DNA of 64,000 nucleotides from NCBI GenBank assembly GCA_963662655.2, contig CAXXTU010000002.1, positions 3,264,001 to 3,328,000 on the forward strand. Direction: 5' to 3'. This DNA is from Candidatus Cloacimonadales bacterium. GTDB taxonomy: Bacteria; Cloacimonadota; Cloacimonadia; Cloacimonadales; JAIOQZ01. Of this stretch, positions 24,001 to 54,000 are shown one piece after another (position 1 is the first letter of the stretch; each line of letters begins with the position of its first letter). Made by a program: the position numbers.

Positions 24001-27000
24001 GACAAATCCTGTTGAGGTCAACTTCGTTCTACAGGGAATCTACGCGGACGAAATAGAGATCGCCGGAGATTATGCCTATTTTGTGGATAACGGGACGGAA
24101 CTTACTGTTGTGGACGTATCCAATCCGGAACAACCTGTTGTGGTCGGGTCGCTCGAAATTGGCCATAGCGTCTATTCGGTATCCATATCCGGGGATTACG
24201 CTGCTGTTAGTAAAGGTGACGATTGCATGATTGTAGATATCAGCGATCCGGGTAGTCCCGAAGTTTTATCATCGCTTGATACGGGCTCGTTCCTGGCCGA
24301 TGTTATGTGGAGTGGCGACTTTATCTACTGTGTGTCTCGTCGTGATGGTCTGGTTGTTCTTGATGCGAGCGATCCCGAGAATCTGGAAGCTGTCAGTTAT
24401 CTTGATTTAGGTGAGAACCTTCGTTCCGCGGTTTATTGCGATGGGCATATGTTCGCAGGGGGAAATGGTTTTTTTGCTGTGGATGTCTCGGACCCGAGTC
24501 AGCCCGAACAGGTTGGTGAGATCGAATCCAACGGCTTCTTCTATGATGTCGAGGTATGTGGGGATTATGCATACGTGGCTGCCGAAGAATATGTCCATGT
24601 TCTGGACGTTTCCGATCCAACCATGCCGGTGCTGCTTGATTCAGACAGGCAACCAGGGAATGCATACCAGATTGATATCGAGGGTGATTGTTTGGTTGTT
24701 GCAGATTACAGCGCTGGTGTTCGGATTTATGATGTGGGAGATCCATATTCATTGGAAGAGGTTGCAACAATCGGTGATCACTGGCATGTGCTCGATGTAA
24801 CAATTTCGAATGGTTATGCATATATCGCTATGGGAGGAATGAATGTGGTGGATATAAGCGATCCGGCTAATCCAATGATCGTGTATGAGGATGGAGCTTA
24901 CTCCAGGAGCATCTGTATTGCGGGTGAATATGCTTACCTCGTTAATGGTGGTTTGAGCGTATGGGATATCCATGACCCCTCAGCTCCGGTTTTTTGCGGG
25001 GCTGAAGATATTGGCCTAATGATTAACGGAATCGATGTCGTTGGGAACATCGCTGTGATTGCCGGACCTGAGTATGGTTTTGGCATATATGAGGTTGGCG
25101 ACCCGGAAAATCCTGAGGAGATTTGCCATTACGATGTCCTTGATCAGGCTGCTTATGTAAGGTCGGATGGAGACTTCGCCTATGTTAGCCGTATGTATAA
25201 AGGACTGAGCGTCGTCGATACCAGGGATCCGTACTACCCCGTGGAAACCGGCTATTACGATATGCCCGGATGTGCGATGGACCTGGATGTCGAGAACGGC
25301 TACGTGTACGTCGCGGAGGGGAATGGGATCGCGATTTACGACTGCTCCGGTGCGGGTGTGGACGATCCGGACGGGGATTCACCGGCTTCGGCGTCGCGCC
25401 TGTTGGGGAATTCACCCAATCCTTTCAACCCGGAGACGACCATCCGTTATTCCATTGCGACTTCGGGAGACGTGCAGCTAAGCATCTACAACATCCGGGG
25501 CGAGAAGGTGCGAACCCTGCAAAAAGGCTGGCAGGATTCCGGAGAGCACAGCGTTGTGTGGGACGGGCATGATCAGAGCGGTAAGCCGGTATCAAGCGGC
25601 GTGTATTTGAGCAGCCTGAAAACCTCCGACGTGAGCCAGACAGGGAAAATGCTTCTGTTGAAATAAACGACTGCGCACACTTTTTCGAGCCGCTTCCGAT
25701 GGGGGCGGCTTTTTTATGAGCATATCGGAGGTATGGCGGTTTTATCACAAACGAACTATAAAATGACACCCCCTTGGCAGAAGTTTACAGACGCTCTGTT
25801 TTCCACCCAAGCATCGACGGACTTGCGAGATAGGCGTCTGCAAGCGTTTGTAAAGAAATGGCAGAAACGGTGCGTTTCGTCCCGTTCGGTGCCACCGGTT
25901 TGGCACATGGGTTCCACTCTCGCAGCCGTGTTAAGCCGTTATTTCCGTGGAGATTCGCGCAAACTCATGGGATATCGTCTGTAAAGCGACTGTAAAAGGG
26001 GCGTCTGTAAACGTGTGTAAAGGGCGTTTGTAAAAGAGCGACTGTAAAACGTTTGTAAAACACAATGAAAAAGGCGAGCGTCAAACGACCGGGTGAAACG
26101 AACCCGATCGAACCGATGCTCGCCAATTCTTCTAATATAGCCTGAACTGAATCACCACCACACCCACGAGGTGAACGTCCATTGGTGAATCCTCGTCGAG
26201 CACGATGACATTGTAGTCTTTGTTGAATGGGAGGAGGAGTACCTGTTTGTTCTTCGGTACGAGCTGGACCTTCTTCAGCGTGATGCCATCATCGGTTCGA
26301 ACAGCGCAGACCTTACCATCGAGACTCATCCAGTCGTAGTTGTAATGAATGACCACGATGTCGCCATGATGGATGTTCGGCTCCATACTGTGACCGTTCA
26401 CTCGAAACACGCAGTAGTTCACCGTATCGCTCGAAAGGAACACGCGCGGGATTTCGATATACGCGAGGCTGTCTTTCTTCGCTTTGACGGGAGGCCCCGC
26501 AGCAATCTCCGCTTCCACCGGCAGACTCACCGTCCGGCTGAAGTAGTTGTCGGACGGGTTATACGGCCTGCCATCGATGGTCTTGACCGTGTGCTTGAGC
26601 ATTTCGAGCCGCTTCTTCTTGCCGTCCTCGGTCTCGAGTAACGCTTCGGGGAAGGGTTCGATGAACATCGAGCCCTGTCCTGTGAGCAGCCAGTTCATGT
26701 TCACGGCATGCATTTCGCAAATACGAACCAGCGCATCGATGGACGGTTTGCTCTTTTTCTTGTCAGAGAGCCAGTCCGAGAGGTTTCCGGTTGACACGCC
26801 GATAGACGACGCAAAATCCATCTTTTTCATTTCTAACGACTTAACTACAGCCGCCAATCTGTCTTTTACTTCCATGCTTTCTCCTGCAATGACTTACAGT
26901 TTATGCGAGAAATCTGTTGACATTTCGCACGCAATTCTTCTTTATTGATGCATGAACTCGAAATTGCACAAACACGAACCGGTGTCAATGGAAAATTTTC

Positions 27001-51000: not shown

Positions 51001-54000
51001 CTCGGCGAACTGGCCGAGAAGCCGTTCAAGGTCGAATCCAAGACCGAGAAGCTCAAGACCCGGCACTACCAGATCGAGGGCAAGCGCACGAACGTGGTGA
51101 CCGTCACCATCGTGGGCATCAACGAGGACAAGAAGAACTGGCTCGAAGAGCAGAGCGCAGGCATGGCGCAGATCACGCTCGTGGCTGTGTCCAAGGACAA
51201 GACGCAGGCGGTGCTCATCAACGGCTGCCGCTGGACGGTCGACTGGAGCGGTGAAGCTGACGGCCTGTACACGCAGGAAGTCACCACCGAGTTCACCGGC
51301 AAGACGAGCGGTCGTATCGGATTCTACAACAAGATACCGGCCACGGTCGAATAGGAGAGAACATGGACTGCAGATGCGATCCTGAAATTCGCAAGAAGAT
51401 ATCGGACGTGCACAAGGAGGTCTACGGCAACGGCGATTCGAGCCGGTCAATGGTCACCCGTATTGCGCGACTGGAAACCAACATCAAGCTGCTCACCAGC
51501 CTGACCGTCAGCCAGTTCTTTCTGCTCGTCGGCGTCGCCGTGAAGACCTTTCTGGGGGCGTGATGGACATCAGTTACGCGACCTTTCGCAAGGTGCTATC
51601 GACGCTTCTGAGGAACGAAAACCTGCGCGACGGACTCACCGACCTGCTCGCCGGTAACGAGCTGGAACTGAGCGAGGTCAGCTTCCTGGACTTGCTCGAA
51701 GCCTCGAACGTCGACATCGACATCCTGCGCATCCTCACCGGACGCGAGCCTGAGGACACTTCTCCCCAGCAGGCGGCGGAGGTGTTCACGGCTTTTTTCT
51801 CGGCTGTCAGAGGCAGTTGGCGCGCGTTTCAGCCCTTGCTCGACGCTTTGGGCTACACGGCGCAAGTGCAAGCGGGGACAGCATAGAACGTATCGAGATG
51901 GCCCTGCGCGGGGCGGGGTTCACACAGGCCGACTTCATCGAGCTGAGCCTGTCCGAACTCTACCTCCGCTACTGCCTCGCCATCGAAACAACAAGGAAAC
52001 ACAATGGATAGTCTCATCACATGGATCGGCGGCAAGAAGCTGCTGCGCAAGAAAATCGCCAGCCTCGTCCCTGACGACATCACCGGCTATGTGGAGCCGT
52101 TCGGCGGCGCGGGTTGGGTGCTCTTCCACCGCGACCGCTGGGCCCGTCTCGAGGTATACAACGACCTCGATTCGCGTCTCACAAACCTCTTTCTGCAGGT
52201 GAAGTTCCATCCCGATGCACTCGTGAAGGAGCTCGAGCTGATGCCAGCCTCCCGAGCATTGTTTGACGAACTGGTCGACCAGCCCGGTCTGACAGAGCTG
52301 CAACGCGCCGCGCGATTCCTCTACATCATCACCCGTTCGTTCGGCGGCAAGGGCGAGCACTTCGGCAGGGCATCCACGTCAGGCCCAAGCAGCATGCAGC
52401 GCAAGCTGGAGCGCGTCCACGACCTCAGCAAGCGGCTCGACAAGGTCACCATCGAACACCTGCCGTACAACGAGCTGATCGCCTTCTACGACCGGTCCGG
52501 TGTCTTCTTCTACTGCGACCCGCCATACGTTCATGGCACTACCTACGCGAATGCCCGGCACTTCGACCACGAGCGGCTTCGGGACGTGCTCAAGGGCGTG
52601 AAAGGCCGCTGGTTGCTCTCTTACGACGACTGCCCCGAGGTGCGTGAGCTGTACGCCGGTCACACCATCATCCCGGTCAGTCGCGTGAAGGGGATCAACC
52701 GCATGCAGGGCGAGAGCATGTTCAAGGAGGTGATTATCGCAAACTATGAGGTGCCAGATGAATAGCGTTATCGGTTGGGTGGGCGGCAAGAGGTTACTAC
52801 GCAAGGCGATCTTGCCACTCATCCCGAAACACGACACGTACTGCGAGCCCTTTGCCGGCGCGGCGTGGATCCTCTTCGCCAAGTCGCGCGACCACAAGGA
52901 ATGGCAGGCGACAAAGGGCCAGAAGTACCGTGAAATCCTCAACGATATCAACGGCGAGTTGGTAAACTTCTGGCGGCACGTGAAGCACCACCCCGCCGCG
53001 CTGAAGGCGGAGTTGGACAGGCTCGTGGCGTCGCGGGAGCTGTTCCACGAGTTTCTCGACAGCGCGTCCCGCACCGACCTCGAACGCGCGGTGCGCTTCT
53101 ACTACGTGCTCGCCTGTTCTTATGGTAGCCTGAGCAGCACCTTCGCCGTGCGCGGTCACCTGACCATGCTGCCGATTCGGCGCGTGGGCAAGCTCGAAGC
53201 GGCCAGCGAACGCCTGCGCGATGTCATCATCGAGCGGCTCGACTACGAGGCCGTTATCCGCAAGTACGACCGTCCGGCGACGTTCTTCTACATCGATCCG
53301 CCGTACTACGAGCGTGAGATGCTCTACGAGCGCGACAAGGTGGCGGCGTTCGACCAGCACGAGGAGCTGGCGCGGCTGCTTCGCGAGGTGCGGGGCAAGT
53401 GGCTCCTGAGTTACAACGACCACCCCGTCATCCGCGAGCTATACAAGGACTTCACGATTGATGTCGTGAACACCCGTTACTCCGTCTCCGGAACCAACCG
53501 CGAAAGCTCTGAAATCCTCATCCGCAACTACTGACGTGATATGATGAGAGCATCACCAAATTCAAGAGGAAGATCAGCTCCACTTGCTGGATACGGGCTA
53601 TTCAGCAGGTTGGCAATCGAGCTCCCAAGAACCCAAGTCGCTACATTGATTCCGGTTCTTGTTTCATGTAGAAGAAAATCTCTATTACATGTAATTGGAA
53701 CTACATGCGTCCAGACATTTCTGCCATCACATCTCTGGTGCAGAGCGGTACTTAGTATCGTTTCACTGCTTCGAAGAGCATCTTCGGCTTCTTGCATACT
53801 TGCTACAAGGTCAATTCTCTTAACGGCAATAAGATTCCTGTCTCTGTTAATCCACTCATTGATAAAGGCGGCAATCATTAGATGATTAACATCCAAAGGA
53901 GGTACCACACAATAGGAGTTGTGCCAGAACCCCTGCTCAGCACACTCAAAACGATCATAGGAAATCTTGTTGTTTCGTTTGTACTCAATGAAGTCGCTTA

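Follow-up and report, generated by a model that had tools for sequence, protein, structure and literature searches.

Prophage loci filled with defence systems are already known from P2 and P4, whose hotspots are described as high-turnover loci between two conserved prophage genes, with diverse defence genes and some non-defence genes, and for which recombination between co-resident elements has been proposed; the loci described there measure ~1-5 kb and adjoin cos in phages of the integrase type (Rousset et al. 2022, PMC9122126). Among transposable phages, the D3112-like phages of Pseudomonas have fixed low-GC accessory slots, with anti-CRISPR genes in RGP G; their accessory ORFs are reported as counter-defensive, 34-100 codons long and 6-10% of the genome (Cazares et al. 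2014, PMC4378225). The transposable prophages of Leptospira are described with coexisting TA-TA and TG-CA end types, at most four copies per genome, a conserved length, a 6-bp duplication, contractile tails and no Mor/C (PMC8705779). Strong integration hot spots with 5-bp duplications have been reported for Citromicrobium phiA/phiB (PMC12486242) and P. aeruginosa Ab30 (PMC5977238), the targets there being a host gene or BIME repeats; the Citromicrobium paper assigns tRNA targets to integrase phages. Insertion shortly behind tRNA genes, by a DDE transposase with an AAA+ ATPase, is described for the TnsD homing of Tn7-like elements (PMC10293859).

The genome of Candidatus Cloacimonadales bacterium (JAIOQZ01; GCA_963662655.2) contains five related Mu-like prophages (A–E), none of them intact. 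Cloacimonadota, which are uncultured, abound in anaerobic digesters. The elements probably belong, as prophages, to a family of Mu-like transposable siphoviruses that extends across Cloacimonadales and has a recombining accessory slot, which holds mainly defence cargo, and the five copies here are best read as defective, cargo-bearing prophages. The hotspot is of a known kind; its size, its surface cargo and the tRNA-adjacent insertion set the new virus family apart. The slot shares with the P2/P4 loci the turnover, the mixed cargo and the place between two conserved genes, but it reaches 12.8 kb (more than 1/3 of the genome), is flanked by MuF and lysin in a phage of the transposable type, and fits type I R-M, BREX and DISARM systems as well as surface proteins with C-terminal domains (CTD). 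It is a fixed low-GC slot like those of the D3112-like phages, with multi-gene defence systems and 500-2700-aa surface proteins in place of short ORFs. The family resembles the Leptospira prophages in its end types, copy number and conserved length, likewise gave no Mor/C match in the Pfam search, and differs in its 5-bp duplication, a tail tube without detected sheath, an S78-capsid fusion and no Pfam match to GemA. It has strong hot spots and 5-bp duplications in common with phiA/phiB and Ab30, whereas its transposase-type ends face tRNA/tmRNA 3' ends.

Copy E lies in the window, that is, the whole 64,000-nt stretch analysed (contig CAXXTU010000002.1, 3,264,001 to 3,328,000). Plain coordinates are positions in this stretch, contig position 3,264,001 being position 1; C1: and C2: mark whole-contig positions. 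The features of copy E are listed in Table 1.

Table 1. Copy E and its cargo, in window positions
Feature	Position	Strand	Basis or remark
Left end, TA-type terminus, TATAAAATGACAC	25757..25769	+	homology start common to A, C, F
c-type repressor (HTH + S24)	26132..26875	-	Pfam
Small ner-like gene, labelled by position	27019..27255	+	paralogues in A, D, F
MuA-type DDE transposase, 668 aa	27252..29258	+	PF09299, rve; D paralogue matches phrog_310
MuB-type AAA+ ATPase, 244 aa	29275..30009	+	AAA_22, TniB; D paralogue matches phrog_296
Hypervariable double winged-helix gene after MuB, truncated (70 aa)	29999..30211	+	alignment; fold of D copy
Low-GC 256-aa ORF replacing rest of wHTH, 123-aa gene and DUF3164	30191..30961	-	no family match in Pfam, PHROG or PADLOC
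Terminase small subunit	31239..31700	+	D paralogue matches Terminase_5, phrog_1889
Terminase large subunit, split 378 + 148 aa	31693..33296	+	
71-nt hairpin-rich (REP-like) insert breaking terL	32740..32810	+	same sequence in A, C, E, G003a, G003b
Minor head protein Mu F ("292-aa gene"), anchoring slot on its left	33293..34171	+	PF04233
99-aa gene, no assigned function	34234..34533	-	its upstream region is the left slot border in A, C, D, E
Cargo slot 1, 10.6 kb	34650..45245	.	GC 0.42 vs 0.59-0.61 in backbone
FG-GAP repeat protein, 528 aa, signal-like N-terminus + T9SS-type CTD	34792..36378	+	
Beta-helix CTD gene, 1608 codons, in-frame TAG at 38181-38183 (531 + 1066 aa)	36588..41414	+	
Two ORFs, 393 and 182 aa, downstream of GmrSD	41525..43193	-	no family match in Pfam, PHROG or PADLOC
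GmrSD-type (type IV) restriction nuclease, 582 aa	43299..45047	-	PF03235 + PF07510; PADLOC
M15 peptidase endolysin, right anchor of slot	45341..45751	+	D paralogue matches phrog_894
Portal ORF; conserved product 396 aa	47176..48741	+	
S78 protease fused to putative major capsid protein, 578 aa	48742..50478	+	
Predicted tail tube protein, 181 aa	50809..51354	+	structure model of D paralogue (94% identical) matches lambda gpV and other tube proteins
Two D12-class adenine methyltransferases	52004..53534	+	
Tape-measure gene, first 45 codons only, remainder lost	54161..54295	+	blastx
Slot 2 cargo: CARDB surface-type protein, 1211 aa, without CTD	54231..57866	-	replaces tape measure + three tail genes
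Last backbone genes: 80-aa gene; 52-aa gene fused to tail end of 158-aa gene	57882..58393	+	
Inner part of right end, TTTGGCAG/GTGTCAC repeats; terminus itself lost	58401..58451	+	
IS3-family element cutting right end	58452..59784	+	

The elements encode a MuA/TnpA DDE transposase and a MuB/TnpB ATPase behind a divergent repressor (Pfam and PHROG matches); among cultured phages, Mu-like transposases match best, at 23-32% identity. The structural and packaging set comprises TerS, TerL, MuF, portal, protease-capsid, tape measure and endolysin, with the tail tube recognised by its fold. The core genes GemA, Mor/C and Mu gp36 gave no Pfam match in G000, in a search whose controls for GemA and gp36 were also silent.

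The paralogue sets of the survey's finding (MuA, MuB, the 292-aa gene, M15, portal and S78-capsid) were found again in A–E, and its self-BLAST matches were reproduced: C1:11442-15032 with C2:3295060-3298649 at 98.6%, C2:1-4475 with C2:3312330-3316806 at 99.0%, and C2:482019-490758 with C2:2743813-2752412 at 98.5-98.6% in two blocks. The 292-aa gene is Mu F (PF04233) and the 514-aa gene the terminase large subunit (phrog_38, E 5e-64). Copy E had been placed at 25745..53534; its left part holds, starting at 25757, where a contig from another sample (X3 record 17) begins an exact match, while the right limit moves to ~58,450, at the IS3 element. The right-end repeats continue into a full end in the relative G001a. 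The decay suspected for several copies extends to all five: terL is broken by the 71-nt insert in A, C and E and by ISL3 in B, the protease-capsid gene is broken in C, and the tape measure is lost in A, D and E. Copy E had been singled out as lacking tail genes seen in A, C and D, and its tape measure is indeed lost, but A and D have no intact tape-measure gene either. The missing left half of copy B was located at C2:~1306245-1316570, ended by ISL3 inside terL, and the unbroken relative G003c aligns to both halves. The halves of copy A are on two contigs, and their join depends on a low-complexity CACAC duplication at its ends. No sign of induction was seen; contig depth is ~9 over the backbone vs ~5 in the flank, which fits copy number only.

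The cargo gap had been defined as lying between the 292-aa gene and the lysis/head module. This location is correct, except that the reverse 99-aa gene intervenes in A, C, D and E; in copy B, M15 has moved, so that another gene bounds the slot. Each cargo reported for the five copies is present: OLD, type III R and M, and C25 and FG-GAP CTD proteins in A; DUF2326 with CTD10 in B; Vsr, an ATPase, a Dcm-type MTase, HNH and two CTD genes in C; type III R-M and a 1583-aa ORF in D; and an FG-GAP CTD protein, a large CTD gene and GmrSD in E. The description of the slot as a turnover hotspot carrying defence systems and CTD surface-protein genes applies also to 13 other genomes and to IMG/VR contigs. 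Of the 22 copies in those 13 genomes, 20 have a slot with both borders; the slot spans 0.7-12.8 kb there, and the 22 copies contain 21 distinct cargo sets. Order-wide, cargo was recovered at 95/102 related loci, in 62 distinct sets. By PADLOC and Pfam (162/252 cargo representatives scanned, plus 50 chosen proteins by PADLOC), the cargo includes type I/II/III/ISP R-M, BREX, Gabija, CBASS, Sir2-HerA, Thoeris TIR, DISARM and ABC-3C, and most of it consists of recognised defence systems, as predicted from sequence.

Copies C and E are 98-100% identical from MuA to the slot and 86-94% beyond it; there, C matches D at 98-100% in 6/9 kb-bins, and A matches E at 100%. Copy C is thus a hybrid with an E-like arm on the left and a D-like arm on the right, and the arms therefore recombine at the slot. 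Copies A and E, whose cargo is otherwise different, share a 338-bp piece (96%) at a CTD-coding 3' end within that cargo.

It is proposed that the accessory locus, placed between the packaging genes and the lysis/head operon, would have its cargo swapped by recombination in the conserved flanks when related copies co-inhabit a cell, the enzyme and the moment being presumptive. With its own promoters, mostly antisense to the late operon, the cargo would probably be expressed in the lysogen, and it may be retained mainly for protecting the lysogen against other phages. About one slot in six adds CTD-tagged surface enzymes or adhesins, which a SprA/PorV-type exporter of the host could display. Total length would be held near one headful, with cargo often displacing the tape-measure region. 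The repeated insertion of some lineages just behind tRNA/tmRNA genes is a pattern seen directly, its cause being presumptive.

The termini are TA or TG/CA, and a 5-bp target duplication was found at 4/7 relatives with both ends mapped (6 bp in none). End motifs face a tRNA/tmRNA 3' end in 13/23 cases, within 713 nt and always in one orientation, vs a chance level of 1.5% of intergenic position-strands in G000, and these ends are spread over about nine RNA loci and three families. Selection after random Mu-like insertion, with tRNA loci as safe harbours, is a serious if tentative explanation of this adjacency and of the stacked ends. It agrees with the insertion into pre-tRNA leaders and trailers that is reported for Mu itself (PMC7350765), with the derivation of the search motif from ends already seen, some of them tRNA-adjacent, and with the A/E lineage, whose ends (A, G001a, G001b, G002a, G003a) are tRNA-adjacent in 0/5 cases and sit 41-85 nt upstream of a TTGAC box. 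The excess over chance, the single orientation and the number of loci argue against it, as do the stacks of short terminal fragments (old ends) at D, B, B2 and in relatives, which show repeated insertion at one spot. No backbone gene of the elements has a TniQ/TnsD family match; they are not Tn7-like tRNA-targeting transposons by family, and resemble them in working at most. The hypervariable double winged-helix gene after MuB is a candidate target selector only.

The survey's finding also held that the slot trades defence and surface proteins, so that lysogeny re-dresses the host surface. Turnover, both kinds of cargo and mosaicism are borne out; the re-dressing is not, and surface-protein trade is rather doubtful as a main function. 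CTD genes do occur in 11/62 cargo sets and fill ~17 of 47 kb of slot-1 DNA here (from coordinates), vs 12.9% of the DNA genome-wide, the share of the host's 193 CTD genes. Two pairs of CTD genes turn up again in the slots of further genomes, across genera: the pair of copy C is closest to slot genes of G006 (48-52%), and the surface-gene pair of copy E recurs in L069. A slot border with an FG-GAP paralogue has outlasted its prophage at C2:2330452-2332461. Against this, 51/62 sets are free of CTD genes (an upper bound, as many loci are incomplete), and 8/193 CTD genes lie inside the elements, which make up 4.5% of the DNA, so that there is no over-representation. The gain would be two to three extra genes among 193, several of them broken or without CTD; in copy E the large CTD gene has an internal TAG and the second surface gene has no CTD. 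Export and activity are predicted. The cargo proteins have C-terminal PF18962/PF13860 domains, 5/6 slot-1 CTD ORFs of A, C and E have hydrophobic N-termini in a crude hydropathy scan, and host SprA and PorV score above cut-off (PorP is weak), but GldM and GldN were not found in the host genome search, where controls were uninformative; "type IX-secreted" is for this reason a label that we infer. The C25 (gingipain-type) protein of copy A matches PF01364 (E 1.8e-33), with a match to a solved structure for the propeptide only; GHG, the motif of the C25 catalytic His-Cys dyad, was not recognisable in residues 261-670. For 17/23 CTD cargo proteins of relatives matching G000, the best match is a non-prophage host gene; CTD cargo may have been captured repeatedly from hosts, which was counted against the main reading.

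A late arrival of the inserts, after prophage fixation, with dead prophages as a neutral landing ground and no phage trade, is unlikely. All five copies are defective, with IS and REP-like lesions, and some slots contain IS transposases (G002a, G053a, G031b), but the inserts occupy one position in 20/22 relatives, the borders agree within tens of bases in A, C, D and E, and end repeats that would mark a separate element were not seen there. Filled slots are also found where terL, capsid and tape measure are unbroken (G009a, G009b, G022, G026, G031a), and total length is constant at 33-35 kb (33.0-34.9 kb in relatives with both ends mapped). That the five copies and their mosaicism arose in the assembly, as an artefact from a mixed population, is very improbable: 3.6-7 kb stretches are 98-100% identical between copies and no examined short-read contig bridges a whole slot, but the genome is 98.95% complete and 0.63% contaminated in 2 contigs, every copy is unique in its flanks and cargo, 2-4 full MuF copies occur in further genomes of the genus too, and short-read contigs, from a sample that is possibly the source, match the flank junction, cargo and lesions of copy E with 0 differences. 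These include the 71-nt terL insert (X1 record 5, 0 differences) and the in-frame TAG (X1 record 6).

For a family of phages with a recombining, mainly defensive slot, MuF would offer a fixed point from which to mine a defence hotspot of very large size; the 62 cargo sets counted to date include several ORFs without Pfam or PADLOC match, such as those at 41525-43193 and D's 1583-aa gene. The family also connects the movement of phages with the large set of T9SS-type surface proteins in its hosts. Should the insertion beside tRNA genes be true targeting, a Mu-type system lacking TniQ/TnsD would have a protein-guided target selector, which matters for transposon biology. A broader reading is speculative and, taken whole, improbable: some lineages would aim insertion behind tRNA/tmRNA genes, and others before promoters, via the swappable double winged-helix protein, with copies piling up at fixed sites, and tail-less, cargo-laden derivatives with intact ends would travel in borrowed tails of co-resident copies, delivering defence and surface proteins that are left as host islands after the backbone decays. 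A second cargo site replaces the tape-measure gene in 10/22 copies, and slot size is weakly linked to tape-measure loss (means 9.7 vs 6.5 kb, p = 0.06, kin not independent).

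The five related Mu-like prophage copies that the survey had found in G000, the Candidatus Cloacimonadales genome under study (3.81 Mb in 2 contigs, C1 and C2), are borne out by our own ORF calling (3559 genes) and blastp, with which copies A to E were delimited; the repeats claimed for them were also recovered. The nearest MuA relatives in the genome collection are five loci, 74–96% identical, all from Candidatus Cloacimonadales.

Copies and remnants of the Mu-like family in G000 (window position 1 is C2:3,264,001; arrows denote descending coordinates).
Feature	Coordinates	Basis or remark
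Copy A	C1:20970→1 plus C2:1-10342	ORF calling and blastp
Copy B	C2:~1306245-1316570 plus 365543→344730	interrupted by ISL3 in terL
Copy C	C2:510899→477006	ORF calling and blastp
Copy D	C2:~2724028-2758954	ORF calling and blastp
Copy E	window 25757-58451	ORF calling and blastp
Left-arm remnant	C2:1616740-1619437	
Right-arm remnant (L006)	C2:~311500-319000	CTD cargo at tRNA-Pro
Internally deleted ~1-kb element	C2:2453959-2455062	L021 region, to 2455200
Lone left end	C2:1722718	

The left half of the element consists, in order, of a repressor (reverse strand), a ner-like gene, MuA, MuB, a double winged-helix gene, and DUF3164 with small genes. TerS, TerL and MuF (the 292-aa gene) precede the first cargo stretch, slot 1, which is followed by an endolysin, three unknown genes, the portal and the S78 protease-capsid; beyond these lie the tail tube, one or two Dam methylases, the tape measure and tail genes. 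The 181-aa tube protein has a predicted fold (pLDDT 76) like that of lambda gpV and other tube proteins, and no tail sheath was detected among the genes of the family. Pfam returned nothing for Mor, GemA or gp36 in G000, in a search whose controls were partly silent. The termini resemble TATAAA(A/G)TGACAC or TGTAA(A)GTGACAC; of the seven relatives in which both ends could be mapped, four carry a 5-bp duplication and measure 33.0–34.9 kb. The right ends of G009a and G009b, two relatives' copies, were not found. In copy D, a gene for a four-helix bundle (23S rRNA IVP) lies between the HTH gene and TerS (C2:2729859-2730245; L012:14859-15245), a position that is a small third variable site.

The cargo slot with differing content is real and general to the relatives. 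MuF was matched in 26 of the 61 genomes searched, G000 included, and in 250 IMG/VR stretches, of which the best 80 were used. Of the relatives' copies, 22 in 13 other genomes have MuF at nearly full length (partial matches omitted); slot 1 is bounded on both sides in 20 of these and spans 0.7–12.8 kb. Cargo of at least 150 aa is present in 95 of 102 loci and forms 62 distinct sets, 11 of them with a protein bearing a T9SS-type C-terminal domain (CTD), in a sample where many IMG/VR loci stop at 10 kb or at a contig end. Pfam was run on 162 of the 252 representatives of the cargo, PADLOC on a selection of 50 proteins; the defence cargo so named comprises type I, II, III and ISP R-M, BREX, Gabija, CBASS, Sir2-HerA, Thoeris TIR, DISARM, ABC-3C and Abi, together with toxin-antitoxin genes. 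Among the CTD cargo are proteases of the C25 and S8 types as well as beta-helix and FG-GAP proteins. Slot 1 is a large defence hotspot, of which surface proteins are a minor component. The slot of copy D (L031, C2:2733722-2738473) also holds a low-GC gene of 1583 aa, without signal peptide or PADLOC match and with a weak beta-propeller match, which is a candidate for a new defence protein.

Counted with our own profile, 193 CTD genes make up 12.9% of host DNA in G000; eight lie inside the elements, which themselves account for 4.5% of the DNA. Thus CTD genes are not in excess in the elements overall, although about 17 of the 47 kb of slot 1 consist of them. No near-identical chromosomal twin of the slot-1 CTD genes was found in G000, the best non-prophage identity being 25–61%. 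The CTD pair of copy C is closest (48–52%) to the slot pair of G006, a genome of another genus, and that of copy E, whose large CTD gene has an internal TAG, is found again in locus L069. Counting against a phage trade in surface cargo, the best match of 25 CTD cargo proteins of relatives is an ordinary host gene in 17 cases, an element-linked gene in 6 and nothing in 2. The host has SprA and PorV, and GldM/GldN were not found in it by a search whose controls were uninformative; a review, in the part available, places Cloacimonadota among the phyla that may have T9SS (PMC11285876). A CTD gene island ending at tRNA-Thr (L020, C2:2325368-2341925) has the left slot border and a paralogue, at 58%, of copy E's FG-GAP gene, without prophage backbone, and is possibly cargo left by a vanished copy.

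Arms were compared in 1-kb bins across copies. Copies C and E are 98–100% identical from MuA to the slot and 86–94% beyond it. Beyond the slot, C and D are 98–100% identical in six of nine bins and 89–95% in the remaining bins, while their left arms are 68–90% alike; the head modules of A and E are 100% alike. The slot borders agree within tens of bases: one lies upstream of the reverse-strand 99-aa gene, the other upstream of the endolysin, with no end repeats visible there. A and E have in common a 338-bp piece at a CTD-coding 3′ end. The mosaic arms, agreeing borders and shared piece fit replacement of the slot content by homologous recombination in the flanks.

The tape-measure gene is lost, with cargo instead, in 10 of the 22 copies whose tail region is covered (5 in G000, 17 in relatives). 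Copies D and G001a have the same cargo at this second site (77% identity) and differ in left arms, flanks and the cargo of slot 1; G053b and G041, from two genera, likewise share theirs (81%). In G001a and G053b the 5-bp duplications are still clean. Tail-less right arms therefore move, either by recombination or in borrowed tails. In copy A, a B12-binding radical SAM gene stands in place of the second Dam and the tape measure (L003, C2:4783-6294).

All five G000 copies are defective. The tape measure is missing from A, D and E; terL is interrupted by one and the same 71-nt hairpin insert in A, C and E, as in two copies of G003, and a similar one breaks the protease-capsid of C; ISL3 breaks B, and C and E have each had their right end cut by IS3. 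Contig depth over the copies points to copy number only, and contigs of sequencing runs X3 and X5 contain diverged relatives only. C and D might complement one another, D supplying terminase and head and C tape measure and tail.

Short hairpin inserts of the GCGAAGC/GCTTCGC type, accompanied by small deletions, occur at window 32740-32810, C2:~487550, L118:~4880-4950 and L127:~6860-6940. They break terL, protease-capsid and MuA near putative catalytic motifs, only in the host's genus; 47 similar hairpins occur genome-wide in G000, which suggests a REP-like family that inactivates prophage genes. Rfam gave no match in window 25000-59000, and the insert pattern matched no viral and one metagenome contig. 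The terL break could still be a programmed frameshift, one frame being open through the insert. A natural two-chain gene or intron is rejected: the insert takes the place of 12 nt, inserts related to it are reversed in the MuA of G003a, and of the 101 terL copies that span the site 95 are unbroken.

An end pattern built from ends already seen matched 35 times in 13 of 203 genomes of the order Cloacimonadales, never when reversed, and in none of 98 genomes of its largest family, f3. From the 30 loci returned of these 35, 4 duplicates and 3 left ends were set aside, leaving 23. Twelve of these face the 3′ end of a tRNA no more than 713 nt away (for 11 of them, no more than 206 nt), and one faces a tmRNA at 88 nt; one has a tRNA pointing away, one abuts another left end, and eight have no tRNA within 1.5 kb. 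The chance expectation in G000 is 0.36% of all position-strands, or 1.5% of intergenic ones. Kin share sites; told apart by name and family, the RNA loci number about nine. Ends of B, D, G003c and G022 also lie behind tRNAs; in the A/E lineage, by contrast, five ends are found 41–85 nt upstream of a TTGAC box. At D, B and relatives, short terminal fragments are stacked, which shows that insertion was repeated at one spot.

The tail-replacing second site and the tRNA-adjacent stacking of ends are the least expected features. As far as the sources could be seen, defence hotspots are known from P2/P4 prophages (PMC9122126) and accessory slots from Mu-like phages of Pseudomonas (PMC4378225); Leptospira transposable prophages show TA termini and polylysogeny (PMC8705779), Mu-like phages of Citromicrobium and Pseudomonas have integration hot spots (PMC12486242; PMC5977238), and Porphyromonas transposable prophages carry surface-modifying genes (PMC10367356). 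The literature search found no account of tRNA-targeted or tRNA-adjacent Mu-like insertion, of T9SS/CTD cargo in a prophage slot, or of Cloacimonadota transposable prophages, which host-assigned virus tables (e.g. PMC10762816, PMC4533152) may already list; this family is not mentioned in the accessible portions of PMC8542988 and PMC9377139, which do name C25 peptidases and a Cloacimonetes prophage.

The gene that follows MuB shows only 25–39% identity between G026, G031a and G057, in which DUF3164, TerS and MuF are 96–99% and MuB 84–92% identical. Its product, predicted to fold as two winged helices, is a candidate for the selection of targets, but a role as regulator or exclusion factor would fit equally well (31 of 50 family members match phrog_142). 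A fold search returned generic tandem winged-helix matches only, and its Atlas clusters contain unnamed Cloacimonadota proteins and archaeal HTH regulators.

Several loci adjoin copies or remnants. The ~1-kb mini-element has a repressor fragment fused to the last tail gene and a right end, directly followed by a new, IS3-cut left end (L021, C2:2453959-2455200). An old right end adjoins the left end of copy A (L033, C1:20971-27000), and the CTD gene behind it is 94–95% identical to cargo of the right-arm remnant. A gene for an LVIVD-repeat CTD protein lies immediately left of copy E (window 23546-25666), and CTD genes also border G001a and G001b. A 7014-aa ORF (C2:3169815-3190859) stands beside a degraded MuA/MuF/99-aa remnant (C2:3192770-3193520). 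Two further loci are no copies of the family: an unrelated phage-like remnant with Gp7-type capsid, scaffold, tube and tape measure (L026, C2:1345012-1353855), and a tail cluster near C2:3384-3399 kb (L028, C2:3384379-3398871), which has a fibre-like gene in common with copy B.
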